In this document: positions 2,274 through 43,726 of the stretch, piece by piece
Numbering within the stretch: position 1 is the stretch's first letter
Layout: each line of letters starts with the position of its first letter
Virus record (IMG/VR): IMGVR_UViG_3300045391_000912
Location: 1 to 64,000 of that record
Reading direction: 5' to 3' (one strand)
Length of the DNA: 64,000 bases
Source: a virus
The notes under the pieces: model-generated
Seen by the model: the letters and a program-made list of their open reading frames with translations, nothing else
Database searches by the model: none
What the model was told of the DNA's origin: nothing
Position numbers and translations under genes: made by a program

Positions 2274-2297
2274 TCGCTACTCCTGGTTGTTGTGAAT

Positions 2298-2391: not shown

Positions 2392-2395
2392 TTTA

Positions 2396-7243: not shown

Positions 7244-7251
7244 TGTCGTCC

Positions 7252-8231: not shown

Positions 8232-8255
8232 CGAGAGACCTGCCCCGTACCGACG
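8206..8255 (-). repeat. direct repeat flanking the methyltransferase gene (left copy in gene orientation)
   Basis: Matches 7466..7515. Spans the junction GQVSR*/MTKLGGSK. Confidence 0.75.
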
Positions 8256-9035: not shown

Positions 9036-9166
9036 CAGTGACACGGCCCTTCTCCGCAACGGCAGTCCTTACGCTTACGGAAGCAACCAGGGCAGGTGTC
9101 GGGGTGCTCTTCCTCGAACTGGGCTTTGATGATGGCGTCCTCGAACTCCTTGCTGACTCTGATCAT
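9035..9166 (-). CDS. Cys-rich microprotein (43 aa)
   Basis: Reads MIRVSKEFEDAIIKAQFEEEHPDTCPGCFRKRKDCRCGEGPCH. ATG 9166 overlaps the upstream stop (ATGA). Confidence 0.5.
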   Translation of the reverse strand: MIRVSKEFEDAIIKAQFEEEHPDTCPGCFRKRKDCRCGEGPCH

Positions 9167-9732
9167 CACTCGTTCTCCACTACATCTTCGACCCGTTCAG
9201 TGATCTCGTGGTTTAGGTACCACTGGCCTTTCTGGAGGTCTTCTACCTGCTTGAACTTGTCGCCCTTAGGCTTGAACGCCACCCGCCACACGTACTTGAA
9301 CAGGTTCCCGAGGCGGAAGTTCATGTGCTTGGTGATGTCGATGCACTCGATGGTCTTGCCGCAGCCCTGGCAGTAGCACGGGGAGCTGTAGTGCGGCGGA
9401 TGATTCACCATGTCCGGGGTCTGTTCCGCCGGTTGGCTCGTGAGCTGGTCCAAAAGCCGCTGTTGGTGCGGGGCAAGCTGAGGGATTCCACCGGGCCAGG
9501 TGAACGCCGGGATCTGGGTCATCTGCTCTTCGGTTAGCTCGATCTCCACGTCATGCTCCGAGCCGCCGTCGGTAAGCCACTGGTGGAAAGCCTCGTCCTC
9601 TCCCTCCGGCGGGGTCTCGGGCTCCTGCTCTCCGGCTAGCTTGCGTTGACGCTCCTCCCGGCGGGCCTGGGCCTTCTTGACCTCCCGGTCGGCCACGGTT
9701 TTGTTGTGCTTAGCCACCCAGTCGTTGCTCAC
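9166..9732 (-). CDS. DUF3310-type protein
   Basis: C-terminal NHPPHYS...IECIDI...GNLFKYVWR signature. Confidence 0.6.
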   Translation of the reverse strand: MSNDWVAKHNKTVADREVKKAQARREERQRKLAGEQEPETPPEGEDEAFHQWLTDGGSEHDVEIELTEEQMTQIPAFTWPGGIPQLAPHQQRLLDQLTSQPAEQTPDMVNHPPHYSSPCYCQGCGKTIECIDITKHMNFRLGNLFKYVWRVAFKPKGDKFKQVEDLQKGQWYLNHEITERVEDVVENE

Positions 9733-9974
9733 TTCTTGTCCTCCTCGACGTGTTCCAGAATGATCTTTGCGGCTTTAGCAAGGTCGTCTGTTCTTACCGC
9801 GCCCATGGACACCCACTCCCGCATGATGTCCATGGCCCACACCATGTCTTCCCGGCCGGGGCAGGTCACGTGGACGTACCCGTCGGGGGTGTAGGTGGCC
9901 ATCTGGCCGATCTTGACGGGCTTATGGCAGTTGAGGCACTTGGTACCGCCGAACCTGTTCCACATGAAGCTCAC
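9729..9974 (-). CDS. hypothetical protein (81 aa)
   Basis: ORF track. GTG 9974 overlaps the SNF2 stop (GTGA), and its stop overlaps the next start. Confidence 0.6.
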   Translation of the reverse strand: MSFMWNRFGGTKCLNCHKPVKIGQMATYTPDGYVHVTCPGREDMVWAMDIMREWVSMGAVRTDDLAKAAKIILEHVEEDKK

Positions 9975-11782: not shown

Positions 11783-11879
11783 GCTTAGGTCCTTAGCTAA
11801 GGGCTTAGCCTGTATAAAACTCTGACCTGCGGAAACGTTTAGCTACAAGATCAAGTTTACAGGCTTTACAGACACCTAA

Positions 11880-29480: not shown

Positions 29481-29525
29481 ACGTAAAGAGCCCCAACTCT
29501 AGACCTAGGTTGGGGCTCTTTACGT
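29481..29525. terminator. bidirectional terminator between convergent genes
   Basis: 17-bp perfect stem ACGTAAAGAGCCCCAAC / GTTGGGGCTCTTTACGT. Confidence 0.8.
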
Positions 29526-29534
29526 TGCGGGGGC

Positions 29535-31631
29535 TTACTTGATCGGCGTGGCCTTGTCGCCCGGCAGTAGCAGCTGCGGAACCTGCGTGAAGGTCCAGTT
29601 CTTACCGTCGTCCGACGTGAACACCCAGTACATGTCGAACCGCTTGCCGTCCCAAGCCGTAGGTAGGCCGGGGCTGATCTTGCCGAAGAGCTTGCACGTG
29701 TTCACGATCGCCGTGTGCTCCAGGCAGACCATCGTGACATCGAGCCGCTGGGCCAACCACGGGCCGAGAGTCTTGTAGTCCTTCTCAGCGTCGTAGCGGG
29801 TGTTCATCGGGAGCCCGGCGGCCTGCTGGTACGGCTGGATCGTCTTAAGCGGCCTGTTCGAGGCTGTGGTGCCCTTGGAGGCGATGCAGCGGTCCGGCTT
29901 AGGTAGACCGGCCGGTTGCTTCCCCGCGAGCCACTGGGCCTTGAAAGCCTCCGCGCGCTGCCTCCCCTTGGCCGACAGCTCGTGCAGGGTGTCATCCTTC
30001 CCGTCAGCGTTGTCGTCCTTCTCGCCGTGCCTTAGCACGATGATCGTCCGCTTAGCCTTAGGAATTGTCTGCGGGATGGGCTGCGTGGGAGGCGGCTCGG
30101 ACACTAGGGAATCAGGCCCCTTACCTGGAGTTACATCCAGACCGATGGATCCGTACTTGCCGGTCACCACATTGTCTTCGTAGAACTTGATCCCGACGCT
30201 TAGGTCACCGGTCTCAACGATCTTGTCGGCCTCACCGGCGAAGGTGTTCCGCGTGATGTGCACGTTGTCGATGTCATCGAACTTCAAGCACTGGTAGCCG
30301 TACGTCTTGAAGTAGTTCCCGTCGACCAGCCAGTTCTTGGAATCGCCGGTACCGCCACCGCCGCCGTCCGTGCTGGCCCGGCCTTCCGCCATGACGCCCT
30401 GGTGCAGGTAGCCAGGATCCGACTTGGGCGGCCCGTTGATTCGGTTGCCCCGGATGATCACGTTGGAGCTAGGCAGCTTAGAAGGCGTATTCCAGGTCTG
30501 GATGCCGTCCGTATGGGAGCCGCCTGGATCGCCCTTGACGAGGTTGTCGATGTTGTTGTTAAGGATCTGCGTGCCATCGCCGAAGAAGCTGATGCCGTTG
30601 ATGTCGTCAGGATCCGACACCTCCGAGACATCGTTGCTGCGGATGACGTTGTTCTTGCCGATCGAGTAGATTCCCGCGTTACCGGCGCCCTTGACCCTGA
30701 AGTTCTGGACGGTCACGTTATCCGCGTTGATCGTGATCTTCCTGACCGTGTTGCCCTGGCCGTCGTAGACCTTACCGCTGGCCGAGGGGCCGAGGGTCAG
30801 CTCAACCGGCTGGGCGGGCGTGAAGAGCACCGCGTTAGGCCCGGAAGCCGTCGGGGTGCTGCCGACGCCTACCTTGGAGTCCACTGGCGACGGTACTGTC
30901 CCACCCGGAGGTACCTGGGCCTGAAACGTGACCCGACCGGGCTTAGCTCCGTGGGTGATCTCCAGGCCGTAGTACCTGGTGGATCCGGTGTTGTACGAGG
31001 TGACCGGGTCGGCGTTCGACTTGTTGGCCTGGGTGTAGGCGCCCGCCTTGAAGTAAGCCCCGGTGAGCTTAGATGCGTCCAGGGTGGCGACGAGTGTGCC
31101 GTTGAAGTAGGCCAGGCACTTACCGCCGCCCACCACGAACGCGAGGTCCACGGCGGTTCCGAGCACGTACTTGTCCGTGACCAGCTTGTAGTGCGTGTTG
31201 TCGCCCGAGGTCACCCAGAGGCTCGACCCCTCAAGCCGGAACACCGAGTAGTCGTCTGCGGCGTCGTGGATCTGGCCGCCGACGACGTGAGGCTTACCGG
31301 TCGGAAGGCTTGTCCAGGCGATCCGCTGGAGCATGGTGTGGTACTTGCCGTCGCTACCACTCCAGGCGGCCTTGTCGGCGCCGAGCATTTCCCGAAGCTC
31401 CGAGCGGGGGTAGCCGGAGCCGGACGTGGTGAGGCCGGTAACCGGGGCCAAGAACGCTACGTATGATCCGTTGGCATCTACGCCCTGTGTGAAGTAAGGC
31501 GCGTAGGTGTTCTTGACCAGGGCGTCCGCAAGCTTGGACCCGGCCACCTCTCCCGGACCCTTAGACCCATCCACGGAGATGGGCAGGGTGATCTTCCAGT
31601 TGGTGAAGTCGATAACTGGCGCGGCAGTCAT
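29535..31631 (-). CDS. three-module enzyme: PL7 (alginate-lyase-2-like) domain + right-handed beta-helix + C-terminal histidine phosphatase
   Basis: ATG 31631 behind GAAGGGG. PL7 motifs WKITLPI, YPRSELREM, GGQIHD and YFKAGAYTQ. Beta-helix repeats (NNIDNLV, HTDGIQTW). The RHGE motif (IIVLRHGEKDD) plus a later CLEH histidine. Confidence 0.75.
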   Translation of the reverse strand: MTAAPVIDFTNWKITLPISVDGSKGPGEVAGSKLADALVKNTYAPYFTQGVDANGSYVAFLAPVTGLTTSGSGYPRSELREMLGADKAAWSGSDGKYHTMLQRIAWTSLPTGKPHVVGGQIHDAADDYSVFRLEGSSLWVTSGDNTHYKLVTDKYVLGTAVDLAFVVGGGKCLAYFNGTLVATLDASKLTGAYFKAGAYTQANKSNADPVTSYNTGSTRYYGLEITHGAKPGRVTFQAQVPPGGTVPSPVDSKVGVGSTPTASGPNAVLFTPAQPVELTLGPSASGKVYDGQGNTVRKITINADNVTVQNFRVKGAGNAGIYSIGKNNVIRSNDVSEVSDPDDINGISFFGDGTQILNNNIDNLVKGDPGGSHTDGIQTWNTPSKLPSSNVIIRGNRINGPPKSDPGYLHQGVMAEGRASTDGGGGGTGDSKNWLVDGNYFKTYGYQCLKFDDIDNVHITRNTFAGEADKIVETGDLSVGIKFYEDNVVTGKYGSIGLDVTPGKGPDSLVSEPPPTQPIPQTIPKAKRTIIVLRHGEKDDNADGKDDTLHELSAKGRQRAEAFKAQWLAGKQPAGLPKPDRCIASKGTTASNRPLKTIQPYQQAAGLPMNTRYDAEKDYKTLGPWLAQRLDVTMVCLEHTAIVNTCKLFGKISPGLPTAWDGKRFDMYWVFTSDDGKNWTFTQVPQLLLPGDKATPIK

Positions 31632-31641: not shown

Positions 31642-31800
31642 CTAGTACCAGTACCTACGGCCGCCGACCGGGTGTCCCACACCACCCAGGACGAGCAGAA
31701 CCAGACCGAGGACGATCAAGATCCAGCCGAGGGTGGCTACGAACGCCGGAACAGGCAGGAGGTAGCCGAGGATGAGCAGGAGAACTCCGAGAATAATCAT
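31642..31800 (-). CDS. 52-aa two-TM membrane protein (holin-like)
   Basis: Reads MIILGVLLLILGYLLPVPAFVATLGWILIVLGLVLLVLGGVGHPVGGRRYWY. Below the ORF-track cut-off. Confidence 0.5.
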   Translation of the reverse strand: MIILGVLLLILGYLLPVPAFVATLGWILIVLGLVLLVLGGVGHPVGGRRYWY

Positions 31801-31803: not shown

Positions 31804-32217
31804 TTAGATTACCCCGCCGGAGCCGTCGTCATACCCGAGCTTGGAAGCCGGAGGAGTCGTGTTAGCGACCGGCACCTCATCGCCGTAGATGTTGATCGGT
31901 GCCTCGACCTGCCCACGCAGCCAGAACGCCACGCCAACGGTGATCGCGGTCATGATGCCGACCTGCTCGTCCGAGGACAGGTGCAGGCCGAATGCGCTAG
32001 CCAGCGACAGGAGGGCTCCAGCGACTCCGGAGAGCCCCGCGAGCGCCTTCTCGCCCACTACCTTCCAGGCCACCACGAAGCCCGCTACGGCCAGCACAGC
32101 GGCGTCTACGATGCCCTGAGTACCGGGCGACCAGTGGGTGAAGTACGCCGAGACCAACATGATCAGCGCGGCGGACAGCTTGGCGAACAGCGCGGGCTCG
32201 CGGCCGAAAATCTTCAT
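31804..32217 (-). CDS. multi-TM membrane protein (holin candidate)
   Basis: ORF track. About 4 hydrophobic helices, in the lysis-cassette position. Confidence 0.65.
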   Translation of the reverse strand: MKIFGREPALFAKLSAALIMLVSAYFTHWSPGTQGIVDAAVLAVAGFVVAWKVVGEKALAGLSGVAGALLSLASAFGLHLSSDEQVGIMTAITVGVAFWLRGQVEAPINIYGDEVPVANTTPPASKLGYDDGSGGVI

Positions 32218-32439: not shown

Positions 32440-33213
32440 TTACGGAAGCTTAGCCAGCAACTGCTGGAGCAGGGCGTTGGTCTCTGCCTGCCCCTTGACC
32501 AGCTTGTCCAAGGCGTCCCGCTCGACTTCGGAACTCCACCTGACGTCCCGATCGAGCGCGGCGTACTTGCCCGCGAAGCCGTTGATGAAGTTGTTGATGT
32601 TGGCCAGTTGCCCGGCCTGGTTGGCGTCCAAGTCAGGAACCTCCTGTGCGATGGGTAGAAGCCGGGCCCCGAGAGGCTTAGCCCTGTTGTACCTAAGCGT
32701 GCGGTCCGCCAGCCCGTTATATCCACCGTTGATCAATCGGGTGGCTTCACGGACGTTGCCCTGATCGGAGGCCGCGTTAAGAGTCGTTCGGGCGACGGTC
32801 CAGTACCAGCTAGCCGCTAGGAAGCCCCACTTAGGGGTGGCCACGAGCGCTGGGCTGTAGATGAAGGTGTTCGCGTCGCTCACGTAGCCCCTGGCAAGGC
32901 ACCAGGCACCGAACTTGCCGTAGTTGAATCGACCGGTGAGCTGGATGGGCCCGCGACCCTTGAAAAGCTTGCCATCGCCTGGATGCGTGTTCCCGAGATC
33001 CCGGCGGCCTTCGTACGCGGCTCCGGAGGCGATCTCCTGCATGTAGAACAGACCCATGCTCTCGTGTCCGAGCTGGGCGCACCACATGGCTGCTCGGTTC
33101 ACGGTGGTGATACCGGCCGCGACCATGGCATTGTTCATCGGGCCGACGTAAGCCTGGTAAGCGGCCATGGAGAGCTGGCCGCCCATCGCGGTGGAGAGCG
33201 TAGCTGCATCCAT
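32440..33213 (-). CDS. endolysin, glycoside hydrolase family 19 type
   Basis: Motifs QLGHESMGLFYMQE and FKGRGPIQLTGRFNY are typical of GH19. Confidence 0.8.
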   Translation of the reverse strand: MDAATLSTAMGGQLSMAAYQAYVGPMNNAMVAAGITTVNRAAMWCAQLGHESMGLFYMQEIASGAAYEGRRDLGNTHPGDGKLFKGRGPIQLTGRFNYGKFGAWCLARGYVSDANTFIYSPALVATPKWGFLAASWYWTVARTTLNAASDQGNVREATRLINGGYNGLADRTLRYNRAKPLGARLLPIAQEVPDLDANQAGQLANINNFINGFAGKYAALDRDVRWSSEVERDALDKLVKGQAETNALLQQLLAKLP

Positions 33214-33226: not shown

Positions 33227-34183
33227 TTAGCTTGTAACGCCGCTGCTGGTAACTACCTTAGTCCACGGACCAGGCGGGGGAGCGTCAACGAACTGCCAGC
33301 TCACTTGATCGTTTTCTCCGTCAAGCTCCTTGAAGCCCAGGCATCCGTTGAGCGCGGGAGATACGTCCAGTCCGGCGTTGTTGAAGTCCTTGTGCGCGGG
33401 CTTAGCGTTGTTAGCTCCGAACACGTAAGCGGTGTCGTGGTAGGCCGAGCCGCTGCTGGGCCCGGCGTCCTCGATCTGGCCATAGCACGTGTTGCCATTA
33501 GGCCCGACGAGCTTGACCCACCTGTTCTTCATGTAGCTGAAATTGGGATCCGAGCACTTACCGGCGTAACCGGGGTCGTTGGCCCACGGGATCACCTGAC
33601 AGCGGGTCTTGAAGCCGGTCGAGTCGTTGATGTCATCGAACGGCAGGTCCAAGTAGAACGGGTTCTCCTTAGGGGCCACCGAGGCGCTGCGAGGGAAGTA
33701 CCCGTTGTCGGGCTTACGGGCTTCGGTGTCGCACTTGTTCTTAGCCGGTACGCCATCACAGCCACCGATCGGCGACCCGGCGCAGTCAGTACCGCTACCA
33801 GCCACGCCGGTCTTAACTCCGGACCAGTGAAGAGCCCACTGGGAGTCGTAGGTGGAGCAGACCTGGGAGCCGTCTGGGAGCTTAGGGTCGAAGATTTCGC
33901 CCACCCAAAATGTGGTGGAGAAGATCCCGGTGTGTAGCGGGTAGGCCCGACCTTGGGGCTGTGGTGCCGAGGTGGGTGGTGGCGCGGGTGTGGTTACCAC
34001 GGTGGTCGGCTGCGGTGTGATCGTCGGGGTGACAGTGACCGGGGCCACGGTGGTTGACGCGGGAGCTGCGGAGGTGGGCTGTACCGACGCTGAGGGGCTC
34101 GTGGACGGCGTGGTGGGCGCTGCTACAGGGTCACACCCCACGAGAGCGAGCCAGGCGCTGAGAACGACGAAGAGACGCTTCAC
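33227..34183 (-). CDS. secreted lipoprotein, possible cell-wall-active accessory protein (RlpA/DPBB-like C-terminus by eye)
   Basis: Lipobox LALVGC, a Thr/Pro-rich linker, and a Cys-rich C-terminal domain with CYGQIEDAGP...LDVSPAL. Confidence 0.6.
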   Translation of the reverse strand: MKRLFVVLSAWLALVGCDPVAAPTTPSTSPSASVQPTSAAPASTTVAPVTVTPTITPQPTTVVTTPAPPPTSAPQPQGRAYPLHTGIFSTTFWVGEIFDPKLPDGSQVCSTYDSQWALHWSGVKTGVAGSGTDCAGSPIGGCDGVPAKNKCDTEARKPDNGYFPRSASVAPKENPFYLDLPFDDINDSTGFKTRCQVIPWANDPGYAGKCSDPNFSYMKNRWVKLVGPNGNTCYGQIEDAGPSSGSAYHDTAYVFGANNAKPAHKDFNNAGLDVSPALNGCLGFKELDGENDQVSWQFVDAPPPGPWTKVVTSSGVTS

Positions 34184-34214: not shown

Positions 34215-34289
34215 TGGGAGCGGGACCCGGACTTGAACCGGGATCGTACGGCTTATGAGGCCGCCAGGTTACCGTTACAACATCCCGCT
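34215..34289 (-). tRNA. tRNA-Met/Ile2 (CAT)
   Basis: Acceptor AGCGGGA/TCCCGCT, T arm CCCGG-TTCAAGT-CCGGG, anticodon loop CTCATAA. CCA is encoded. The D arm is irregular. Confidence 0.55.
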
Positions 34290-34309
34290 ACGTCAGCGTA
34301 CTACCTAGG

Positions 34310-34380
34310 CTAGGGCGATAGGACTCGAACCTATATTCAGGGAACCAAAATCCCTTGTCCTGCCATTGAACGACGCCCCA
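34310..34380 (-). tRNA. tRNA-Gln (TTG)
   Basis: Acceptor TGGGGCG/CGCCCTA, T arm ATAGG-TTCGAGT-CCTAT, anticodon loop TTTTGGT. Confidence 0.7.
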
Positions 34381-34388
34381 ATAAGCAA

Positions 34389-34422
34389 GGGTGCAGGGAC
34401 GCCTTGACCTCGCCCTGCACCC
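34389..34422 (-). terminator. 10-bp perfect hairpin inside the tRNA array
   Basis: GGGTGCAGGG / CCCTGCACCC, followed on the minus strand by TTGCTTATT. Either a terminator or a processing hairpin. Confidence 0.4.
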
Positions 34423-34470
34423 CCAGTGTCGGTGGCTAGTAGGTCAAGACTTCACCGTTGACACTGTTTG

Positions 34471-34545
34471 CTGCCGCCCCAGGGCTCGAACCTGGAAAGC
34501 TCCTGATTCAGAGTCAGGCGGGTCTGCCAGTTCCCCCATGCGGCA
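34471..34545 (-). tRNA. tRNA-Gln (CTG)
   Basis: Acceptor TGCCGCA/GGCGGCA (one mismatch), T arm CCAGG-TTCGAGC-CCTGG, anticodon loop CTCTGAA. Confidence 0.65.
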
Positions 34546-34558
34546 TTGATCTTGAACG

Positions 34559-34630
34559 TACTCCATACCGGATTTGAACCGGTACCCTCCTGATCGAGAG
34601 TCAGGCGTTCTGCCGTTGAACTAATGGAGC
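34559..34630 (-). tRNA. tRNA-Glu (CTC)
   Basis: Acceptor GCTCCAT/ATGGAGT, T arm ACCGG-TTCAAAT-CCGGT, anticodon loop CTCTCGA. Confidence 0.7.
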
Positions 34631-34631
34631 T

Positions 34632-34703
34632 TGGAGGCGATGACCGGGCTTGATCCGGTGTGCGTCAGCTTTGCAGGCCGCGCCGACACCTTGTCGCATC
34701 GCC
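34632..34703 (-). tRNA. tRNA-Cys (GCA)
   Basis: Acceptor GGCGATG/CATCGCC, T arm ACCGG-ATCAAGC-CCGGT, anticodon loop CTGCAAA. CCA is encoded. The D loop is very short. Confidence 0.55.
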
Positions 34704-34704
34704 T

Positions 34705-34778
34705 TGGTACCCCCGGTAGGAATCGAACCCACGTCTCAGGATTAAAAGTCCCGAGCTAAACCACTCAGCTACGGAGGC
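34705..34778 (-). tRNA. tRNA-Lys (TTT)
   Basis: Acceptor GCCTCCG/CGGGGGT, T arm GTGGG-TTCGATT-CCTAC, anticodon loop CTTTTAA. CCA is encoded. Confidence 0.75.
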
Positions 34779-34779
34779 T

Positions 34780-34855
34780 TGGTGCTCACGGAGAGAGTTG
34801 AACTCACACTGGCCGGGGTTTGAATCCGGTGCCTCTGCCGTTGGGCTACGTGAGC
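34780..34855 (-). tRNA. tRNA with Leu anticodon CAA but a short (5-nt) variable region
   Basis: Acceptor GCTCACG/CGTGAGC, T arm GTGAG-TTCAACT-CTCTC, anticodon loop TTCAAAC. A73 and CCA are encoded. Confidence 0.55.
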
Positions 34856-34861
34856 AAGAAG

Positions 34862-34944
34862 TCCCGCGCCGAGGAGTCGAACCTCGTGCCCCTAAGGGTG
34901 CTGGTTTACAGCCAGCCGGATGCGTCCACACGCCCACGCTCGGG
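34862..34944 (-). tRNA. tRNA-Tyr (GTA), long variable arm
   Basis: Anticodon arm GCTGG-CTGTAAA-CCAGC, T arm CGAGG-TTCGACT-CCTCG, acceptor CCCGAGC/GCGCGGG (one mismatch). Confidence 0.65.
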
Positions 34945-34998
34945 TTTGGGTCCACGCTTTTAGTTGGGAGCAGAGCCCGGACGCAGTAACTGCTCAGA

Positions 34999-35080
34999 GG
35001 CGGGTAAAAGAATCGAACTTTCAGGTTTCACCCTGGCCGGGGATTCGACGCCCGTTTGTGGACACACCACGCTACCCGCC
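34999..35080 (-). tRNA. tRNA-Ser (CGA), long variable arm
   Basis: Perfect acceptor GGCGGGT/ACCCGCC, T arm GAAAG-TTCGATT-CTTTT, anticodon loop GTCGAAT on a 4-bp stem. Confidence 0.55.
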
Positions 35081-35088
35081 ATTTAGAA

Positions 35089-35135
35089 GCCAGGTGGTGC
35101 TGGGATTTCGGGTCCCAAGACGCTGCACTCCTGGC
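35089..35135 (-). ncRNA. tRNA minihelix-like element (acceptor-like helix plus T-arm-like hairpin only)
   Basis: GCCAGG-A-GUGC ... GCAC-CA-CCUGGC encloses the hairpin UGGGA-CCCGAAA-UCCCA. There is no D or anticodon arm. Confidence 0.35.
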
Positions 35136-35184
35136 GACGCTACGGCATACACTCCCCCGTCTAAGGGCCGTCCGTAACGCGATG

Positions 35185-35267
35185 CGGAAAGCCGAGGTCC
35201 CGACCCCCAGGGTGTTACCCCCGTACGCGCTAGCAACGCGCCCCTGTCCCCGACAGGTTGACCTTCC
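35185..35267 (-). tRNA. tRNA-Ser (GCT), long variable arm, non-canonical T loop
   Basis: Acceptor GGAAGGT/GCTTTCC, anticodon arm GCGCG-TTGCTAG-CGCGT, variable arm GGG-TAACA-CCC, T arm TGGGG-GTCGGGA-CCTCG, G73. Confidence 0.55.
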
Positions 35268-35270
35268 CTG

Positions 35271-35344
35271 TACCACCGACCGGATTCGAACCGGTGTCTT
35301 CCGACTTGAAAGGCCGGAGGCTTAGACCACTAGCCGACGATGGC
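35271..35344 (-). tRNA. tRNA-Glu (TTC)
   Basis: Acceptor GCCATCG/CGGTGGT, T arm ACCGG-TTCGAAT-CCGGT, anticodon loop CTTTCAA. Confidence 0.7.
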
Positions 35345-35345
35345 T

Positions 35346-35440
35346 TGGTGAAGAGCTTGCCCTACTCCGACGATCTTCCTGGATGATCAGTCCAGTAGTT
35401 GCTTTCGTCGCCACCGATATCCTACCCAGGCAAGCCCCAC
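35346..35440 (-). ncRNA. 95-nt tRNA-like RNA ending in ACCA, closed by a 12-bp terminal helix, not a cloverleaf (E1)
   Basis: Sits 1 nt from each neighbouring tRNA. Terminal helix GUGGGGCUUGCC/GGCAAGCUCUUC. Internal hairpin CUGGA-CUGAUCA-UCCAG. No T arm. Confidence 0.4.
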
Positions 35441-35441
35441 G

Positions 35442-35513
35442 AGCCCCTTCGAGGAATCGAACCCCGGACCACCCGCTTACAAGGCGGAGGTTCTACCACT
35501 GAACTAAAGAGGC
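35442..35513 (-). tRNA. tRNA-Thr (TGT)
   Basis: Acceptor GCCTCTT/AAGGGGC, T arm CGGGG-TTCGATT-CCTCG, anticodon loop CTTGTAA. Confidence 0.7.
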
Positions 35514-35549
35514 AAGGTAGGCAGTATTAGAAAGCTTGCCCAGAGCTAG

Positions 35550-35622
35550 AGTCCCCACTCGGATTCGAACCGAGCCTCTCAGTTTGGAAGACTGATGTGC
35601 TATCCGCTGACACTACGGAGAC
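35550..35622 (-). tRNA. tRNA-Gly (TCC)
   Basis: Acceptor GTCTCCG/TGGGGAC, T arm CTCGG-TTCGAAT-CCGAG, anticodon loop CTTCCAA. Confidence 0.7.
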
Positions 35623-35679
35623 AGACGGTCGAGGTTTTTAGATTTTTAGCAGCAGAAACTCGACCAGAAAACTACTTCG

Positions 35680-35753
35680 TGGAGTCTAGGGGAATCGAAC
35701 CCCTCTAATCTTGCTTGCAAGGCAAGCGCCTTCCCCAGATGAGCTAAGACCCC
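35680..35753 (-). tRNA. tRNA-Ala (TGC)
   Basis: Acceptor GGGGTCT/AGACTCC with the G3:U70 identity pair, T arm AGGGG-TTCGATT-CCCCT, anticodon loop CTTGCAA. Confidence 0.8.
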
Positions 35754-35754
35754 A

Positions 35755-35831
35755 TGGGGTGGATGACCGGACTTGAACCGGCTTGGAACAGGTTCACAAC
35801 CTGCCGCCTCGACCACTTCAGCCTCATCCAC
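35755..35831 (-). tRNA. tRNA-His (GTG)
   Basis: Acceptor GTGGATG/CATCCAC, C73, CCA encoded, anticodon loop TTGTGAA. The base at -1 is U, not G. Confidence 0.7.
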
Positions 35832-35833
35832 AG

Positions 35834-35906
35834 CCGGTTAGGGAGGAGTCGAACCCCCGACGCTCGGTTCCGAAGACCGACGCTCTGTCCACTGAGCTAC
35901 TAACCG
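35834..35906 (-). tRNA. tRNA-Arg (TCG)
   Basis: Perfect acceptor CGGTTAG/CTAACCG, T arm GGGGG-TTCGACT-CCTCC, anticodon loop CTTCGGA. Confidence 0.7.
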
Positions 35907-35907
35907 A

Positions 35908-35982
35908 TGGTCGGTCCGGAGGGAGTCGAACCCCCGCGCGCCAGTTTAGGAAACTGCTGCTCTTCCTCTGAGCTACGAACCG
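35908..35982 (-). tRNA. tRNA-Arg (CCT)
   Basis: Acceptor CGGTTCG/CGGACCG, T arm GGGGG-TTCGACT-CCCTC, anticodon loop TTCCTAA. CCA is encoded. Confidence 0.65.
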
Positions 35983-35992
35983 ATCAATCACG

Positions 35993-36065
35993 CGATGACG
36001 AAGGGATTCGAACCCTCATAGCCCACCCTGACAAGGTGGTTCACTAACCGTTGTGATACGTCACC
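35993..36065 (-). tRNA. tRNA-Asp (GTC)
   Basis: Acceptor GGTGACG/CGTCATC, T arm GAGGG-TTCGAAT-CCCTT, anticodon loop TTGTCAG. Confidence 0.7.
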
Positions 36066-36075
36066 AAGACTTATG

Positions 36076-36146
36076 TACCCCCGGCTGGAATCGAACCAGC
36101 GTCTCAGGATTAAGAGTCCCGAGCTAAACCACTCAGCTACGGAGGC
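36076..36146 (-). tRNA. tRNA-Lys (CTT)
   Basis: Near-duplicate of the TTT isoacceptor. T arm GCTGG-TTCGATT-CCAGC, anticodon loop CTCTTAA. Confidence 0.75.
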
Positions 36147-36147
36147 T

Positions 36148-36225
36148 TGGTCCCCGCCCCAGGATTTGAACCTGGCACCTTCACTTCATCAGAGTGCTGC
36201 TCTACCAAGAATGAGCTAGACGGGG
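36148..36225 (-). tRNA. tRNA-Ile (GAT)
   Basis: Acceptor CCCCGTC/GGCGGGG, T arm CCAGG-TTCAAAT-CCTGG, anticodon loop CTGATGA. CCA is encoded. Confidence 0.65.
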
Positions 36226-36229
36226 AAAG

Positions 36230-36303
36230 TGCTTTCGGAGGGATTCGAACCCACACTGCCTAGTTCCTAAGACTAGTGCCTCTGCCAATTGGGCTACGAA
36301 AGC
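36230..36303 (-). tRNA. tRNA with Leu anticodon TAG but a short (5-nt) variable region
   Basis: Perfect acceptor GCTTTCG/CGAAAGC, anticodon arm CTAGT-CTTAGGA-ACTAG, T arm GTGGG-TTCGAAT-CCCTC, A73. Confidence 0.55.
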
Positions 36304-36304
36304 T

Positions 36305-36404
36305 TGGTGCGACATCATCAGTCTGCTGCGGGGCCGTGCCGACAACACACGGCTTTACGCCTTCAGTCCAGGTATCCGCAGGTCTAAGAGTCCGCAGACG
36401 TCAC
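36305..36404 (-). ncRNA. 100-nt tRNA-like RNA ending in ACCA, not a cloverleaf (E2)
   Basis: 7-bp acceptor-like helix GUGACGU/AUGUCGC plus A-CCA. Sits 1 nt from both tRNA-Phe and tRNA-Leu(TAG). Internal 6-bp hairpin GCCGUG/CACGGC. Direct repeat CUGCGGA occurs twice. No T or anticodon arm found. Confidence 0.4.
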
Positions 36405-36405
36405 G

Positions 36406-36480
36406 CCGCCACGCCTGGAGTCGAACCAGGGACCTCCGGGGTTTCAATCCGGCGCTCTTACCAAACTGAGCTACGAAGCG
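36406..36480 (-). tRNA. tRNA-Phe (GAA)
   Basis: Acceptor CGCTTCG/CGTGGCG (one mismatch), T arm CCTGG-TTCGACT-CCAGG, anticodon loop TTGAAAC. Confidence 0.6.
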
Positions 36481-36485
36481 TTGAA

Positions 36486-36578
36486 AGGCGCAGACTCGGA
36501 AGGTGAGGACTTTCGAGTTGGACCCGAGCACACAGAGCAAGACTGCCACTAATGTTTCTCAAGGTTTTGTCTGCGCCT
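36486..36578 (-). ncRNA. 93-nt structured element closed by a 10-bp helix, not a cloverleaf (E3)
   Basis: AGGCGCAGAC / GUCUGCGCCU closes the element. Inner helix CUCGG/CCGAG. Sits 2 nt after tRNA-Trp and 5 nt before tRNA-Phe. No CCA. Confidence 0.35.
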
Positions 36579-36580
36579 AG

Positions 36581-36652
36581 CACGCACTCAAGGAATCGAA
36601 CCTTGTCATCGCGGAGTTGGAAGCCGCTGCCGTCCCATTGGGCTAAGTGCGT
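36581..36652 (-). tRNA. tRNA-Trp (CCA)
   Basis: Perfect acceptor ACGCACT/AGTGCGT, T arm CAAGG-TTCGATT-CCTTG, anticodon loop TTCCAAC. Confidence 0.7.
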
Positions 36653-36658
36653 AAGTTT

Positions 36659-36735
36659 TGGTGCGGCCTTTTACCGACATGCCGAGGTCGTATATCGCGT
36701 TAACGGCGGGTGCTCTTCCACTGAGCTACCGGGGT
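36659..36735 (-). pseudogene. degenerate tRNA: intact 5' half joined to an unrelated 3' part that ends in ACCA
   Basis: Reads ACCCCGG-TA-GCTC-AGTGGAA-GAGC-A-CCCGC-CGTTAAC..., but no matching T arm or 3' acceptor strand follows. Confidence 0.45.
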
Positions 36736-36756
36736 GTATGGGCGCCTTATAACACT

Positions 36757-36790
36757 CACCCGTGTGGGATTCGAACCCACGGCCTCCCGC
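36757..36790 (-). pseudogene. tRNA 3'-half fragment
   Basis: Reads GCGGG-AGGCC-GTGGG-TTCGAAT-CCCAC-ACGGGTG. It starts at the 3' strand of the anticodon stem and lies directly after tRNA-Val. Confidence 0.55.
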
Positions 36791-36794
36791 CTCG

Positions 36795-36866
36795 TACCCC
36801 CAGATGGATTCGAACCACCGGCCCGCTGTTTGTAGGACAGCCGCTCTCCCGCTGAGCTATAGGGGT
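36795..36866 (-). tRNA. tRNA-Val (TAC)
   Basis: Acceptor ACCCCTA/TGGGGGT, T arm GGTGG-TTCGAAT-CCATC, anticodon arm GCTGT-CCTACAA-ACAGC (C rather than U at position 33). Confidence 0.6.
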
Positions 36867-36911
36867 ATAAAAGTCCCGCTCTACCAGCCATTACGCCTCG
36901 AACGGGACTAG
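36867..36911 (-). pseudogene. scrambled tRNA remnant
   Basis: 7-bp stem AGTCCCG/CGGGACT. Contains a D-arm-like TGGTAGAGC and an anticodon-stem-like GGGACTTTTA fused to the start of tRNA-Val. Confidence 0.4.
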
Positions 36912-36984
36912 CTGGTCTGGCAGGGTTCGAACCTACACCTGACTCCTTAACAGGGAGCAGCTCTGCCAATTGAGCTACAGACCA
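36912..36984 (-). tRNA. tRNA-Asn (GTT)
   Basis: Perfect acceptor TGGTCTG/CAGACCA, T arm GTAGG-TTCGAAC-CCTGC, anticodon loop CTGTTAA. Confidence 0.7.
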
Positions 36985-37035
36985 AAGATCACTGTGGAGT
37001 TTTCACTGCTACACGCGGCGCGTAGGACCGCAAAG

Positions 37036-37109
37036 TCGGGATAGCACGACTCGAACGTGCGGCCTCCAGCTCCCAAAGCAGGCGCTCTAACCAACTGAGC
37101 TACATCCCG
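37036..37109 (-). tRNA. tRNA-Pro (TGG)
   Basis: Acceptor CGGGATG/TATCCCG, T arm GCACG-TTCGAGT-CGTGC, anticodon loop TTTGGGA. Confidence 0.65.
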
Positions 37110-39544: not shown

Positions 39545-42500
39545 TTAGGTGCTGATCGTATCGGTGATGCGGACTTCCGTGCCTTCGTAACCCTTGTAGG
39601 TGGCCGTGATCGAGCTGCCGGTGTCGGTGAACTCCACGATGGCGTAAAGCTCGCTGACCACGGTGTCCGACTCGTGGGCGTTGTCGGGGTACTGCTGCTC
39701 GTAGCCCGCTCCACCGGCCTTGACCTTGGTCGTGTTGTGGAGTGGTGCACTCTGCCAAACCTTGTCGTAGCCGTACTGGTTCGAGCCGGTGGCCAGCGAG
39801 TGCGTGTCACCGTTGAGGTACAACACGGTGGCCGAGGAGGCGCTAAGGGCGCTCGCAAGCTCGTTCCGCTCGGTGTCGTAGCCCCGCCATTCGTCCTGTC
39901 CGGCCTCCTTGGGACCAGGGATCTGCCCGTCTCCGAAGACGACGATCATCGGCTCCGAAGCGGTGGACAGGATGTTCTTGAACCAAGCCTTCTGGGTGCT
40001 GCCCAGCATGGTCTTGGAGCTGTTGTCCGTGGCGGTAAGGCTGGACTTGAAGCTAAGCATGTCGAGCAGGACGAACCTGACGCGCCCGACCACCCATGTT
40101 CGGTAGATGCCCGTGGTCGGTAGCGTCGCGTTCTGCACACCCGGCCCGCTGGATCCCCACTTGGTGCGGTAGGCCGTGTTGAAGTTGTTGACGAACGTGG
40201 AGCCCTTCTCCACACCGGTCGCGTTGTTTGCGTAACCGAAGTCGTGGTCCGACACACCGACGATGATCGGGTTGGGTAGGGCTGCGATGAGCGCCGCGAA
40301 GTTGCTGTAGCCCGTCTGCCGGTTCCAGTCCGCGACCCAGTCAGGTGTGGCGCCGTCCTTGTACCAGAAGTCTCCGAGGATGGCGAAGTAGTCGGGCCCG
40401 GCGTTCTTGATGTGCGTAAGCGACCCGGCCGCCGAGGCGTTGGCGTTGATGCAGGCGCCGAAGGCCACCGTGAACGAGGTGGTGTCCCCGCCGCCGATGG
40501 TGTCCGAGTCGTAGACGGGATCCGGGCCGCCGGGGTAGTAGCTGCCGAGCTTCTTGAACTCAGCCGCCGCGTAGTCCGAGCTGGATTCCGAACCGGTGCT
40601 CTGCGGGTACGTACCGACCTTGAAGTAGCCGTTACCCGAGTGCGTTACCCCGGTGACGGAGGTAGTAGTGGCCCCCGCAAGCGTCGGATCAGTGCCCGCC
40701 TTGTGGATGATGTTCAGCGTGCTCGACCCGGTCACCATGATCCGGACCGTCAGCCAGTCCCCCTCGGTGTAATTACCAAGAGCGACGAAGGATCCGCCGT
40801 TCTTGTTGTAGCCGTACTTAAGCGTGCCGCTGACGACTTCCGTCTTGATCTGGAGCACGTCGTCGGAAGCGTCGTGGATCTGCATTCCCGAGCAGCGCTT
40901 GAGCGAGTTCGGCAACTTCGTCCAGCGGAGGCAGACCTGGACCCCGTAACCGCTGGTGAACGGCCACCCGGTAGTTCCGGTGCCGTTGGTGTCCATCTGC
41001 CGAAGCTCGGTACGCGGGTTGGAGCTTCCCGAGGTTGTAGGCGCGTCCAGGGAGATCCGCATCTGCACAGCGGTGTTGTCGCTGGTCATGCAGAACTCGG
41101 GCGACTGGGTGTAGCCACCACCGATCTGCGCCTGAGACTTCTCGATGATGGACGAACCACCCGAGATACCGGTCTGGACCTTGAAATGATTCAAGTTGCC
41201 ATTCGTGCCGATCTTCAGGCACTCACCGGGCGTGGAGTAGGTCCGTGGGATCGTTCCACCCGAACCGCCGCCTGTGTCCCCGTCCAGGCCACCGACACCG
41301 CCGCCTGTGGGTTGCGACTGGTCGAGCTTCTGTCGTCGCCCAGCGTAAGGAACGTCCTGGTCGACCCCGAAGTTGATCTGGAACGAGTCCAGGAGGTAGT
41401 TGGCGTTGAGCCCGGCCGCCTGTCGGTCGACGGTGTAGATGTCGCCCTCGACCAAGGCCGGGTTCTGGACCGCGCTGATCTCTACGGTCTCTCCGGCGCC
41501 CTTGAGCTTGAGCAGGTAGCCCTGCGCCATGGTCAGAGCATCGCCCGTGGAGGTTACGAGCTTGGAGACGAACCGCTTGACCCGCTTACCGCCTGTGCCG
41601 AGGTAGTAGGTGGGCGAGCGTGGGTCGTTGTCGGCCGCCGAGGCGCTTACCGGGACGATCGGGGTTCCGTCGGGGTTGGTGGCGCTGGACTCGCCCGACA
41701 CGACGATGTAGTTGAAGCTCTCCGACCGAGTCAGCTTGCGCATGACCCTGGTCATGACCGGCCGCTGCTTGTCCGAGAAGGTGAAGACCGACGGCTGGAT
41801 CGAAGGGTCCGGGAGCGGCTGAAGGACGTAGATCCCCCGCCAGTCCATGAACAGTTCCATGCCGCAGAAGGCCGCGCACTGTTGAACGTCCGCTAGCGGG
41901 TTGTTCTGCGCGTTAGCCCCGAAGGTAAGCGTGGCCGGAGCGACCATCTGCGTCGAGGCGAAGTCGAACTGGGCCGAGGGGTCGCGGTCCAGGATGACTT
42001 GCTTGATGACATCGCCCATGTTGGTGCCGGACGGGAAGGTCCGTACCGATTCCCAGGCGTTCTCCTGGAGCCGGAGGCTTAGATCCTGGCCCTCAAGCTC
42101 GATCTGGACGCCGTCAGGCCCGTCCGTGATGGTTGTGTCCGTGATCAGGAAGACCCCGGCCTGCACCATCTCGTCGTAGCTCTTGTCGGTGTCGATGTTG
42201 ATGTTGAGCTTGTCGACAACCGGCGATTCAGCCGTTCCGGACGCCTTCCTCAGCAGGATCCGGTAGTTAAGGGCCTTAGCGACGCTCGTACGCGGCACCA
42301 GGTTCGGGATCGACTCGCCGTTGGAGGCGTCTTCCCAGGTCGCCCCGTTGTTCACCGAGGTCTGCACCGTCACCGACGAGCCCGGCGGAAGCGACGTCAC
42401 CTCCCACGAGATCGTGGACCAGATGACCGGCTGCCCGCTTGGGATCGGCTTAGGGTCTCCCAGCCATGTGGCGGTGGCCGACAGGCGGTGCGGTACGACG

Positions 42501-43726
42501 AGACCCGACGGCGCCAACGAGCTGCTTAGCAGGTACGTGACGCTCTTAGGCTTCAGGACCCCGGTCGGCGTGATCGAACCCTTGCCGGTCGCGTTCTTGA
42601 TGACCGTCTTGGAGATCGAGCCCGAAGGGGCGCTGGATCCGGCCGCTGGGCGGTTGACGATGTGCGCGGGCGGCGCCGAGCCGGTTGGTGTGGTGGATCC
42701 GGTGAACTTCGCCTTGGTGATGGCCTTAGCCACCGTGCCCGATGGTGTGGACGAGCCCTTGACGCTGTTCTTGACCGCGCTGAACGGCTTGATCGTGCCG
42801 CTGGATGTGGTCGAACCGGTCCGCGTCGGCAGCAACACGACCTTGGTAGGTGTGACGGTGCCGCTAGGCGTGCTGGATCCGGTCCGCTTGTCCTTGGTAA
42901 CGGCCTTGGTGATCGCACCCGTAGGTGTGCTGGAGCCTAGCTGCGTGTTCTTGACCGAGGTCTTAGCCGCGATCGTCGCACCGGGCGTTGTGGAGCCTGT
43001 GCGGGCGCTCTTTTGAACTTGCTTGCCTGCGATGGAGCCTGCGGGCGTGCTGGAACCGGCCGTGTTCTGAACGGACTGGTTTTTAGCAAAGATTTCGGCG
43101 GTTACCCAGTTGTTGGCGGGCGTGCCTGTGCTGGAAACGCTGAAAGTGGCACTACCACCAGCGGAACCAAGGGTCTTGTAACCCACGATTCCATTTGTGC
43201 CGTTGCTGGTGTCGTGATTGCTGAAGTTAGTGGTACCCGTAGCTCCAAGGGTGCCGCCGTTGTTGTCTTCCGCGACGACGACACCGAGCGAGCCTGTACG
43301 CCCGATCGTGAAGCCGGTTGTAGTGAACGAAGTCGAGTTGTTGCTGCCATCGGTGTGGCCACCGGTCTGCGTGGCCGTGTCGGCACCTGTGAGCACTAGC
43401 AGCTTAAGCCCGACGCCGGAGCTGCTGGCGCCGCCGACCGTCGTGCTTACGGTCAGTCCCGTACGTCCGTGCGCTCCTGGCAGCTTGGCGACCCAGATAG
43501 CGCAGGCGCCCTTCTTGCCTGCTACGGAGTTAATGAACTCCAACTGGGTCCAGATAAGGGCTGTTCCGTTGTTACTGATGGACAGTGTTGTGCCTGATTG
43601 CGCGGTCGAGCTGAAGGCGCACGCAACCAGTACAACGTCGTCGGGAGGTGTGAAACTGGCGGTAGTCGCCGTAAAAAAGAGATTGGTGACTAGCGCCGGA
43701 GAGGACGCATCTACGGCAATGGCCAT
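39545..43726 (-). CDS. large tail fibre / minor tail protein with a PL7-like lyase module and a C-terminal PhoD-like phosphoesterase
   Basis: 1393 aa. About nine 20-aa GSSTPSG repeats. PL7-like TELRQM, MQIHD and YFKVGTYPQS. PhoD-like FAILGDFWY, VSDHDFGYANN, RFVLLDMLSFKS, DEWRGYDTERNEL and YLNGDTHS. Confidence 0.8.
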   Translation of the reverse strand: MAIAVDASSPALVTNLFFTATTASFTPPDDVVLVACAFSSTAQSGTTLSISNNGTALIWTQLEFINSVAGKKGACAIWVAKLPGAHGRTGLTVSTTVGGASSSGVGLKLLVLTGADTATQTGGHTDGSNNSTSFTTTGFTIGRTGSLGVVVAEDNNGGTLGATGTTNFSNHDTSNGTNGIVGYKTLGSAGGSATFSVSSTGTPANNWVTAEIFAKNQSVQNTAGSSTPAGSIAGKQVQKSARTGSTTPGATIAAKTSVKNTQLGSSTPTGAITKAVTKDKRTGSSTPSGTVTPTKVVLLPTRTGSTTSSGTIKPFSAVKNSVKGSSTPSGTVAKAITKAKFTGSTTPTGSAPPAHIVNRPAAGSSAPSGSISKTVIKNATGKGSITPTGVLKPKSVTYLLSSSLAPSGLVVPHRLSATATWLGDPKPIPSGQPVIWSTISWEVTSLPPGSSVTVQTSVNNGATWEDASNGESIPNLVPRTSVAKALNYRILLRKASGTAESPVVDKLNINIDTDKSYDEMVQAGVFLITDTTITDGPDGVQIELEGQDLSLRLQENAWESVRTFPSGTNMGDVIKQVILDRDPSAQFDFASTQMVAPATLTFGANAQNNPLADVQQCAAFCGMELFMDWRGIYVLQPLPDPSIQPSVFTFSDKQRPVMTRVMRKLTRSESFNYIVVSGESSATNPDGTPIVPVSASAADNDPRSPTYYLGTGGKRVKRFVSKLVTSTGDALTMAQGYLLKLKGAGETVEISAVQNPALVEGDIYTVDRQAAGLNANYLLDSFQINFGVDQDVPYAGRRQKLDQSQPTGGGVGGLDGDTGGGSGGTIPRTYSTPGECLKIGTNGNLNHFKVQTGISGGSSIIEKSQAQIGGGYTQSPEFCMTSDNTAVQMRISLDAPTTSGSSNPRTELRQMDTNGTGTTGWPFTSGYGVQVCLRWTKLPNSLKRCSGMQIHDASDDVLQIKTEVVSGTLKYGYNKNGGSFVALGNYTEGDWLTVRIMVTGSSTLNIIHKAGTDPTLAGATTTSVTGVTHSGNGYFKVGTYPQSTGSESSSDYAAAEFKKLGSYYPGGPDPVYDSDTIGGGDTTSFTVAFGACINANASAAGSLTHIKNAGPDYFAILGDFWYKDGATPDWVADWNRQTGYSNFAALIAALPNPIIVGVSDHDFGYANNATGVEKGSTFVNNFNTAYRTKWGSSGPGVQNATLPTTGIYRTWVVGRVRFVLLDMLSFKSSLTATDNSSKTMLGSTQKAWFKNILSTASEPMIVVFGDGQIPGPKEAGQDEWRGYDTERNELASALSASSATVLYLNGDTHSLATGSNQYGYDKVWQSAPLHNTTKVKAGGAGYEQQYPDNAHESDTVVSELYAIVEFTDTGSSITATYKGYEGTEVRITDTIST
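42530..43057 (-). repeat. about 9 tandem ~60-nt (20-aa) coding repeats in the tail fibre
   Basis: Units of the form GSSTPSGT(I/V)xKxVxKxxxT. Confidence 0.8.

Follow-up and report, generated by a model that had tools for sequence, protein, structure and literature searches.

Lysis by phages of Gram-positive and actinobacterial hosts usually depends on a holin and an endolysin, to which lysin B (LysB) is added where a mycolic-acid layer has to be passed. LysB is a mycolylarabinogalactan esterase of the phages of mycolic-acid actinobacteria, and it attacks a layer of the envelope other than peptidoglycan at lysis. Here we characterize a gene that lies beside the lysis genes of an uncultured virus, IMG/VR record IMGVR_UViG_3300045391_000912, of which positions 1 to 64,000 were analyzed (64,000 nucleotides, referred to below as the window). 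Its product, a 698-amino-acid (aa) protein designated P0001, joins an N-terminal domain of polysaccharide lyase (PL) family 7, a parallel beta-helix, and a C-terminal domain of the histidine phosphatase superfamily. We put at roughly 55% the probability that P0001 is a soluble enzyme released through the holin, which would act at phage exit on an envelope polymer containing uronic acid and phosphate.

The viral record is complete, with a length of 69.6 kb, direct terminal repeats, and a G+C content of about 61-62%. Its terminase and capsid proteins were found to be 40-55% identical to their counterparts in phages of Corynebacterium, Mycobacterium, Streptomyces, and other actinobacteria, which argues that the phage is an uncultured actinophage. 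We take it to be a soil phage.

Domain composition of the protein

A preliminary description, made from the letters of the window, had placed an open reading frame at 29535-31631, and it was recovered there on the minus strand with a product of 698 aa. A ribosome-binding site (AAGGGG) was found a few bases before the ATG at 31631, and the gap between this ATG and the stop of the 52-aa gene upstream is 10 nucleotides (nt). Because the homologues begin at the residue equivalent to the start of P0001, the length of 698 aa is taken to be that of the product. All of the motifs quoted earlier were located in the translation, including WKITLPI (residues 12-18), YPRSELREM (74-82), GGQIHD (118-123), and YFKAGAYTQ (193-201) in the N-terminal part, IRSNDVS (330-336), NNNIDNLV (358-365), and GGSHTDGIQTW (370-380) in the middle, and IIVLRHGEKDD (530-540) and CLEH (636-639) toward the C-terminus. 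The AlphaFold2 (AF2) model of the full protein consists of three confident domains with disordered linkers between them; together with the Pfam and family-profile searches, this structure prediction upheld the three domain assignments first proposed.

The N-terminal domain is, by its profile matches and conserved residues, a PL7 lyase, and this is the strongest of the three assignments. It was noted that the Pfam family PF08787 (Alginate_lyase2) was matched with an E-value (E) of 1.7e-31 and a score of 110.2 bits (cut-off 29.7), with residues 7-227 covering positions 1-225 of the 225-position profile. The closest solved structure in the Protein Data Bank (PDB) was 1UAI, the ALY-1 polyguluronate lyase of Corynebacterium sp. 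(E 5.7e-60). Foldseek matched the domain to 1uai with E 4.9e-22, a template modeling (TM) score of 0.90 on the target, a root-mean-square deviation of 2.2, and 50% identity, while the TM score for 5zqi was 0.91. The predicted local distance difference test (pLDDT) score of the AF2 model is ~90 across the domain, whose beta-jelly-roll superposes on solved PL7 enzymes. The PL7 catalytic set is present in full (R76/E78/R80, Q120, H122, Y193, K195, Y199, and Q201). In the alignment, Q120/H122/Y199 of P0001 correspond to Q117/H119/Y195 of 1UAI, which are the catalytic residues of PL7 enzymes. The catalytic residues are invariant in five full-length homologues, with RSELREM and YFKAGAYTQ intact. With the PF08787 match above its cut-off and the catalytic residues aligned, the PL7 proposal of the preliminary description is well sustained.

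The same description had reported no signal peptide, and we arrived at the same result by inspection and by alignment with 1UAI. Residue 5 of P0001, where the PL7 domain begins, pairs with residue 9 of the mature form of 1UAI; neither a leader peptide nor a virion-anchor domain could be accommodated ahead of it, and no hydrophobic stretch was seen at the N-terminus. A tail-anchor or particle-binding domain was likewise not found in P0001.

The C-terminal domain had been proposed to be a histidine phosphatase. This held at the level of the superfamily, but the cut-off of the Pfam family PF00300 was missed: the match was borderline on P0001 alone, and the assignment was settled by a family alignment, its profile, and Foldseek. 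While a word-indexed search for the stand-alone domain returned one relative only, HMMER, run exhaustively over 1.84 billion cluster representatives, brought out the family: 885 relatives of the domain, of which 180 had E <=1e-10. When 70 of the relatives, with 29-41% identity to the query, were aligned, R534, H535, E537, R593, and T597 were invariant and H639 was present in at least 90%. These residues form the Arg/His pocket, with H535 as the nucleophilic histidine, by which the histidine phosphatase superfamily is defined. The profile of the 70 relatives matched the histidine-phosphatase domain of MutT1 (5gg5/9cxx, E 2e-5) over ~160 residues, nearly the full length, with RH and the second Arg coinciding with those of 5gg5; weaker matches were to tau55-HPD, phosphoglycerate mutases, and PFKFB3. 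Independently, when the model of the whole protein was searched with Foldseek, 9cxx_B (E 7.5e-6) and 5gg6_A (E 2e-5) were returned for this domain with a probability of 1.0, and the AF2 pLDDT was ~90 over it. Within the family, PF00300 was matched at E <=0.01 by 11 of the 70 members (best 1.1e-6). In the source databases the members are called "hypothetical" or "histidine phosphatase family," the latter being the name that NCBI gives to some cellular members, and no member is characterized. By its alignment and model, the domain belongs to the superfamily as a divergent, SixA/MutT1-like member whose catalytic core is intact and whose activity is predicted.

The middle region had been described as beta-helix-like, which was borne out at the level of fold. 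Modeled alone with 21 homologues, residues 252-512 gave an all-beta, right-handed helix with regular coils (pLDDT 93.3; predicted TM score 0.92). The Pfam family PF13229 (Beta_helix) was matched by 10 of 17 homologous domains (best E 3.6e-8), and by P0001 itself at E 4.7e-4, below the cut-off. The NCBIfam search of P0001 gave a sub-threshold match to NosD (a beta-helix family) only, PF14592 was not matched on P0001, and a PDB sequence-profile search with the middle domain returned nothing meaningful. Its Foldseek matches were generic, the top ones all being beta-helix enzymes and the best being to glycoside hydrolase (GH) family 87 at E 4.5e-4, with TM scores <=0.53 and identities <=16%; they included GH87 alpha-1,3-glucanases, PL6/PL31 alginate lyases, AlgG, AlgE4, pectate lyases, and tail spikes. 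The domain could not be placed in a specific catalytic family (PL6, PL31, GH28, GH87, or AlgG/AlgE), and by sequence and model it appears to fit no known CAZy family, the assignment being at the level of fold only. In the alignment of homologues, the invariant polar residues were D334, D343, N345, H373, D375, Q378, W380, H410, and Q411, and no Lys or Arg was invariant. Because Asp and His are invariant and Lys and Arg are not, a beta-helix hydrolase is favored, and the pattern would speak for a glycosidase-like or binding groove more than for a PL6-type lyase that depends on Ca. The domain may found a new family of carbohydrate enzymes.

We then considered how these domains are combined among the relatives. 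In 94 clusters the C-terminal domain stands alone, often behind a twin-arginine (Tat) or lipobox leader, which marks such stand-alone relatives as exported actinobacterial lipoproteins. Approximately 45 clusters fuse the domain to PL7, in either order, and 5 have the arrangement of P0001, with PL7 first, the beta-helix next, and the phosphatase-like domain last; in a few others a beta-helix is joined to the phosphatase-like domain or precedes PL7 and the phosphatase-like domain. Nearly all of the fusions of PL7 and the phosphatase-like domain are leaderless and begin directly at PL7. The cellular PL7 enzymes of Isoptericola and Sanguibacter carry signal peptides. It was also noted that two metagenomic fusions (P0128 and P0156) possess an N-terminal hydrophobic or transmembrane segment reminiscent of signal-anchor-release endolysins.

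The nearest relatives were found to differ from domain to domain. For PL7 they are P0013 (71% identity) and P0004 (70%), and for the beta-helix P0007 (66%), P0006 (64%), and P0022 (64%), with the syntenic homologue P0003 distant at 40%. For the phosphatase-like domain they are P0004 (82%) and P0005 (79%), with P0013 distant at 32%. These identities point to separate histories of the three domains (mosaicism). The pair of PL7 and phosphatase-like domain is the conserved core, and the beta-helix is an optional part that has been exchanged with tail proteins; P0022 is a tail-module protein (locus L005) in which PL6 is fused to the same beta-helix module. Since the pair persists despite the shuffling, it can be argued that its two members work together. 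At L005, consecutive tail-module genes (6742-11791) encode fn3+PL7 (419 aa), PL6+beta-helix (546 aa, P0022), and PL6+PL7 (716 aa) proteins. These lyase genes follow the tape-measure and distal-tail genes and precede an S74 fibre, amounting to a dense set of polyuronate lyases on one tail.

The lysis module and its recurrence in other phages

When the late genes are read on the minus strand, their order is the tail genes (including a 1393-aa fibre), 23 tRNA genes, a 318-aa lipoprotein, a GH19 endolysin, a holin, a DUF6131 protein, and the P0001 gene (Table 1). The adjacency to a lysis cassette that had been described earlier was therefore confirmed by the GH19, holin, and DUF6131 matches, and by blastn the endolysin gene matches lysin A genes of actinophages. 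The cutinase-type LysB family PF01083 was not matched anywhere in the 69.6-kb genome. A sigma-70 promoter scan found no promoter-like site between the lysis genes, and a hairpin follows the P0001 gene. Given this order, the lack of an internal promoter-like site, and the hairpin, the gene is predicted to be the final cistron of a late transcript that spans the structural and lysis genes.

The placement in a lysis module recurs in at least four other uncultured phages. A scan of IMG/VR with a close alignment of relatives of the C-terminal domain yielded 9 loci. In L003, the genes for the lipoprotein, GH19, holin, and DUF6131 proteins are followed by a homologue that is 53% identical to P0001. 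In L008, GH19, holin, and DUF6131 genes precede a two-domain protein of PL7 and the phosphatase-like domain, and a protein of the same two domains follows GH19, lipoprotein, holin, and a 272-aa gene in L010. In L094, a holin-like gene and a DUF6131 gene precede a 676-aa three-domain homologue. The lipoprotein gene comes after the homologue (P0006) in L004, and in L011 and L096 the homologue is preceded by large tail-fibre-like genes, with a homologue of the tail fibre upstream in L096. In all loci examined, no other gene stands between the homologue and the divergent early genes. Just upstream of P0006, L004 also encodes a Gly-rich fibre-like protein and a protein of 397 aa (1835-3028) that ends in a GDSL/SGNH hydrolase domain; the hydrolase may be a de-O-acetylase acting on the same polymer.

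The tail fibre of the phage carries a lyase and phosphatase pair of its own, with PF08787 and PF09423 matches that are both above their cut-offs. Its PL7 domain is 31% identical to that of P0001 and keeps RTELRQM, QIHD, and YFKVGTYPQ. The phosphatase/phosphodiesterase family of the fibre, PhoD, differs from the family found in P0001, so that this is a separate pair in the same phage. As two non-homologous phosphatase types are each joined to PL7 in one phage, a target containing both uronic acid and phosphate is suggested.

Table 1. Position, strand, and basis of assignment of the P0001 gene, its domains, and the neighboring features of the window (aa, amino acids)
Feature	Coordinates	Strand	Basis
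Gene of the 698-aa three-domain protein (P0001)	29535..31631	-	ATG at 31631, stop codon 29535-29537
PL7 polysaccharide-lyase domain, residues 5-227	30951..31619	-	PF08787, 1UAI, Foldseek
Pro-rich disordered linker 1, residues 240-252	30876..30914	-	AF2 pLDDT <50 at residues 239-251
Short right-handed parallel beta-helix, residues 252-510	30102..30878	-	AF2, Foldseek, PF13229 in homologues
Pro-rich disordered linker 2, residues 511-526	30054..30101	-	AF2 pLDDT <50 at residues 510-525
Histidine-phosphatase-superfamily domain, residues 527-698	29538..30053	-	Family alignment, profile match, Foldseek
52-aa DUF6131 membrane protein	31642..31800	-	PF19626 E 1.6e-8, phrog_3158 E 8.5e-14
Holin	31804..32217	-	phrog_9752 E 7.9e-21; syntenic in L003, L008, L010
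GH19-type endolysin (lysin A glycosidase)	32440..33213	-	PF00182 E 4.7e-6, phrog_9506 E 5.7e-79
318-aa predicted lipoprotein	33227..34183	-	Signal with LVGC lipobox, Pro/Thr linker
23 tRNA genes	34215-37109	-	Between tail genes and lysis module; same strand as late genes
1393-aa tail fibre, PL7 residues 844-1060 and PhoD-like residues 1203-1322	39545..43726	-	PF08787 E 8.4e-23, PF09423 E 1.5e-11
Hairpin, 17-bp stem	29482..29528	.	Between convergent genes; -35.9 kcal/mol, z -7.0

Several neighbors of the gene have features of their own. The hairpin was spotted by eye and confirmed by folding, none of 200 shuffles folding as well; a simple terminator scan had missed it. It is formed by a perfect 17-bp inverted repeat, ACGTAAAGAGCCCCAAC ... 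GTTGGGGCTCTTTACGT, between the convergent late gene and a ParB-like gene, and is a probable bidirectional terminator ending the late operon. The DUF6131 protein has two helices, and its gene directly follows the holin gene in the window and in L003, L008, and L094; its homologues adjoin the holin in L003, L008, L011, and L094. Its probable role is that of another holin-like protein or of a regulator of lysis. The lipoprotein starts with MKRLFVVLSAWLALVGC, followed by a Pro/Thr-rich linker and a conserved Cys-rich C-terminal domain of ~220 aa. Homologues of it, at E 1e-123 to 1e-150, accompany the GH19/holin/PL7 module in L003, L004, and L010, and no Pfam, NCBIfam, or PDB sequence match was obtained for it. 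Its motif GQIEDAGP...LDVSPA is putatively similar to RlpA/DPBB domains. The lipoprotein may thus far be counted as a candidate member of the lysis module.

Proposed function and its alternatives

We propose that P0001 would be a late product, synthesized along with the GH19 endolysin, the holin, and the DUF6131 protein, and would build up in the cytoplasm, gaining access to the wall only once the holin opens the membrane, as for endolysins and LysB. The PL7 domain would then cut by beta-elimination at 4-linked uronic-acid residues of a secondary wall polymer or capsule of the actinobacterial host. The beta-helix might bind or hydrolyze another sugar linkage in the same or an associated polymer, and the histidine-phosphatase domain might remove phosphomonoesters from the polymer or its fragments. 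The expected outcome would be a faster or fuller disintegration of the envelope, in which the receptor polymer on debris is destroyed and progeny are not trapped; the PL7 and PhoD pair of the tail fibre would serve entry. The preliminary description had named an anionic, phosphate-containing envelope glycopolymer as the target, and this candidate target gains plausibility from the PL7 and PhoD pair of the fibre, the ~45 fusion clusters, and the mostly exported cellular relatives of the phosphatase-like domain. The absence of LysB from the phage is also part of this argument.

A number of observations weigh against this proposal. At two loci, L004 and L011, the genes ahead of the homologue are tail-fibre-like and not a holin, and at L005 the beta-helix module is also part of tail-module proteins. 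The nearest PL7 enzymes are polyguluronate (alginate) lyases, and actinobacteria are not known to produce alginate. On P0001, PF00300 (His_Phos_1) scored 14.9-18.1 bits against a cut-off of 21.7, and only positions 1-48 of the 194-position profile were covered. Histidine phosphatases are normally monoesterases or act on phosphoanhydrides and would not cut the phosphodiesters of teichoic acids, which makes the role of the third domain the weakest link. A cellular pathway coupling the PL7 and phosphatase-like domains was also considered and is unsupported, as the C-terminal-domain family was absent from all five PL7-bearing actinobacterial genomes (0/5). There is a possible precedent for the third domain in Ais/PmrG of Salmonella, a member of the superfamily that reportedly dephosphorylates a heptose of the lipopolysaccharide core, which would mean that envelope glycans can be substrates of the superfamily.

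Much of the evidence for a soluble, signal-less protein made late would equally suit a depolymerase of the matrix or biofilm, released at lysis and favoring progeny diffusion and plaque halos, with no effect on lysis of the producing cell. The PL7 relatives are exopolysaccharide (alginate) lyases, and in a survey of soil viruses PL7 was the commonest viral lyase family, with 33 of 42 lyase annotations (10.1101/2024.12.20.629349). However, the gene is not freely placed but tightly and repeatedly linked to holin and DUF6131 genes, and a few homologues begin with a transmembrane anchor of the kind typical of lysis enzymes that are directed at the envelope. We regard this alternative as unlikely; it overlaps with release through the holin for action on the envelope, and only the location of the polymer differs. 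Quite unlikely, in our view, is that P0001 is a virion-associated depolymerase, an accessory partner of a tail spike or fibre used at adsorption, whose gene would stand at the end of the operon owing to the shared structural and lysis transcript. The tail-module proteins of L005, the homologues following tail-fibre-like genes in L004 and L011, and the tail-fibre homologue upstream in L096 are all consistent with such a role, but P0001 possesses no N-terminal anchor or adaptor ahead of its catalytic PL7 domain, and its gene is separated from the tail genes by the 23 tRNA genes and the whole lysis cassette. In addition, the tail fibre already has a PL7 and PhoD pair, and the beta-helix is short (~260 aa) and optional.

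A further question, independent of these alternatives, is whether the C-terminal domain acts on a glycopolymer at all, as it might be a non-catalytic binder of anionic polymer or wall through its Arg/His pocket, or an enzyme for a small molecule such as a nucleotide. Its nearest solved relatives are nucleotide-acting (5gg5 and 9cxx, an 8-oxo-(d)GTP/GDP phosphatase), the Pfam score is below the cut-off, and the family is without a characterized member. Against the first version, the invariance or near-invariance of H535, R534, E537, R593, and H639 across 70 sequences at ~30-40% identity argues for retained catalysis; the exported cellular relatives argue against a cytoplasmic nucleotide substrate, and the repeated fusion to a polysaccharide lyase speaks against both, so that we consider either version improbable. 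The ~50% identity of the PL7 domain to secreted alginate lyases of soil actinobacteria also brings to mind an auxiliary metabolic gene, by which the infected cell would be fed on external alginate. This role was rejected as highly improbable: a leaderless enzyme could not reach external alginate before lysis, the gene is located in the late lysis module, and nutritional PL7 enzymes carry CBM32 (F5/8 type C) rather than the extra domains of P0001.

Novelty and comparison with known systems

The three-way fusion had not been recognized as a described one in the preliminary account, and within the limits of our searches it is undescribed. A tblastn search of 50,697 phage records with P0001 found no full-length relative and no isolate phage with the protein; the sole match was 33% identical, covered the C-terminal domain, and came from a Ralstonia phage record that is unannotated and unverified. 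A scan of 185,579 species genomes matched only cellular PL7 domains (residues 4-227); it gave no full-length relative and no copy in a prophage, and so no pointer to the host. No family matching P0001 was found in PHROGs, and Foldseek against BFVD returned no viral protein with the three-domain architecture. The literature searched held nothing that combines PL7, histidine phosphatase, and phage, and no such enzyme is described there.

While phage depolymerases and accessory lysis enzymes are known, novelty lies in the combination of domains, in the phage-specific fusion of PL7 and phosphatase-like domain, and in the constant location of this fusion within the lysis module. Two of the families involved are uncharacterized, namely the exported branch of the histidine phosphatases and the beta-helix module. 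Only tentatively, and with the odds against it, do we suggest that the fusion of PL7 and a histidine-phosphatase-like domain, with or without the beta-helix, is a new phage-specific class of lysis-module enzymes. It would provide phages of non-mycolate actinobacteria with a third lytic function, needed for dismantling an acidic secondary wall polymer that contains uronic acid and phosphate, a role like that of LysB, and the phosphatase-like domain would have an activity on cell-wall glycopolymers that is new to the histidine phosphatase superfamily. If this were true, the role of the class would equal that of LysB for the mycolate layer. The recurrent leaderless fusion would then join the holin and endolysin scheme, pointing to another envelope layer that is cleared on exit, for which an acidic secondary wall polymer or a capsule is the candidate. 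Taken together, the lysis-module and tail-fibre pairs predict the chemistry of the host receptor, namely uronic acid and phosphate. The uncharacterized and largely exported histidine-phosphatase branch (885 clusters) gains a testable substrate hypothesis, and these proteins are candidate enzymes for the degradation of actinobacterial wall polymers and biofilms.

Compared with ALY-1 (1UAI), P0001 is ~50% identical over the whole catalytic domain, shares the beta-jelly-roll (TM 0.90), and has in common the catalytic Gln, His, and Tyr and the RSELREM, QIH, and YFKAGAYTQ motifs. However, ALY-1 is a secreted, single-domain, nutritional enzyme, while P0001 is leaderless, encoded in a phage lysis module, and extended by two domains. 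The middle domain shares its right-handed parallel beta-helix fold with GH87 (7C7D/5ZRU), PL6, PL31, AlgG, and AlgE4, its top Foldseek matches, but E is only 4.5e-4 to 2e-2 at the low TM scores and identities given above, with no PDB profile match. It also lacks the invariant Lys/Arg that PL6-type lyases need. For residues 527-698, the best profile and fold match is the C-terminal domain of MutT1 (5GG5, 9CXX), alongside the minimal SixA-like members, and the RHG motif and second Arg align. The identity is only 16-20%, and the position of the second His differs in the alignment. MutT1 is cytoplasmic and acts on nucleotides, whereas members of the P0001-type family are fused to a lyase or exported as Tat lipoproteins.

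As with the tail-spike and tail-fibre depolymerases, including the alginate lyases of Pseudomonas and Azotobacter phages, P0001 is a phage-encoded protein with polysaccharide-degrading modules; the same beta-helix module occurs in tail proteins of related phages and a second PL7 in the tail fibre of this one. It differs from them in having neither a virion-anchor domain nor a long trimeric helix, and in being encoded after the holin instead of among the tail genes. The parallel with mycobacteriophage LysB does not go beyond position: there is no homology between this cutinase-like serine esterase and P0001, for which the predicted chemistry is that of a lyase or phosphatase, yet each is an extra signal-less enzyme of the lysis cassette, encoded beside lysin A and the holin at the equivalent genomic position.

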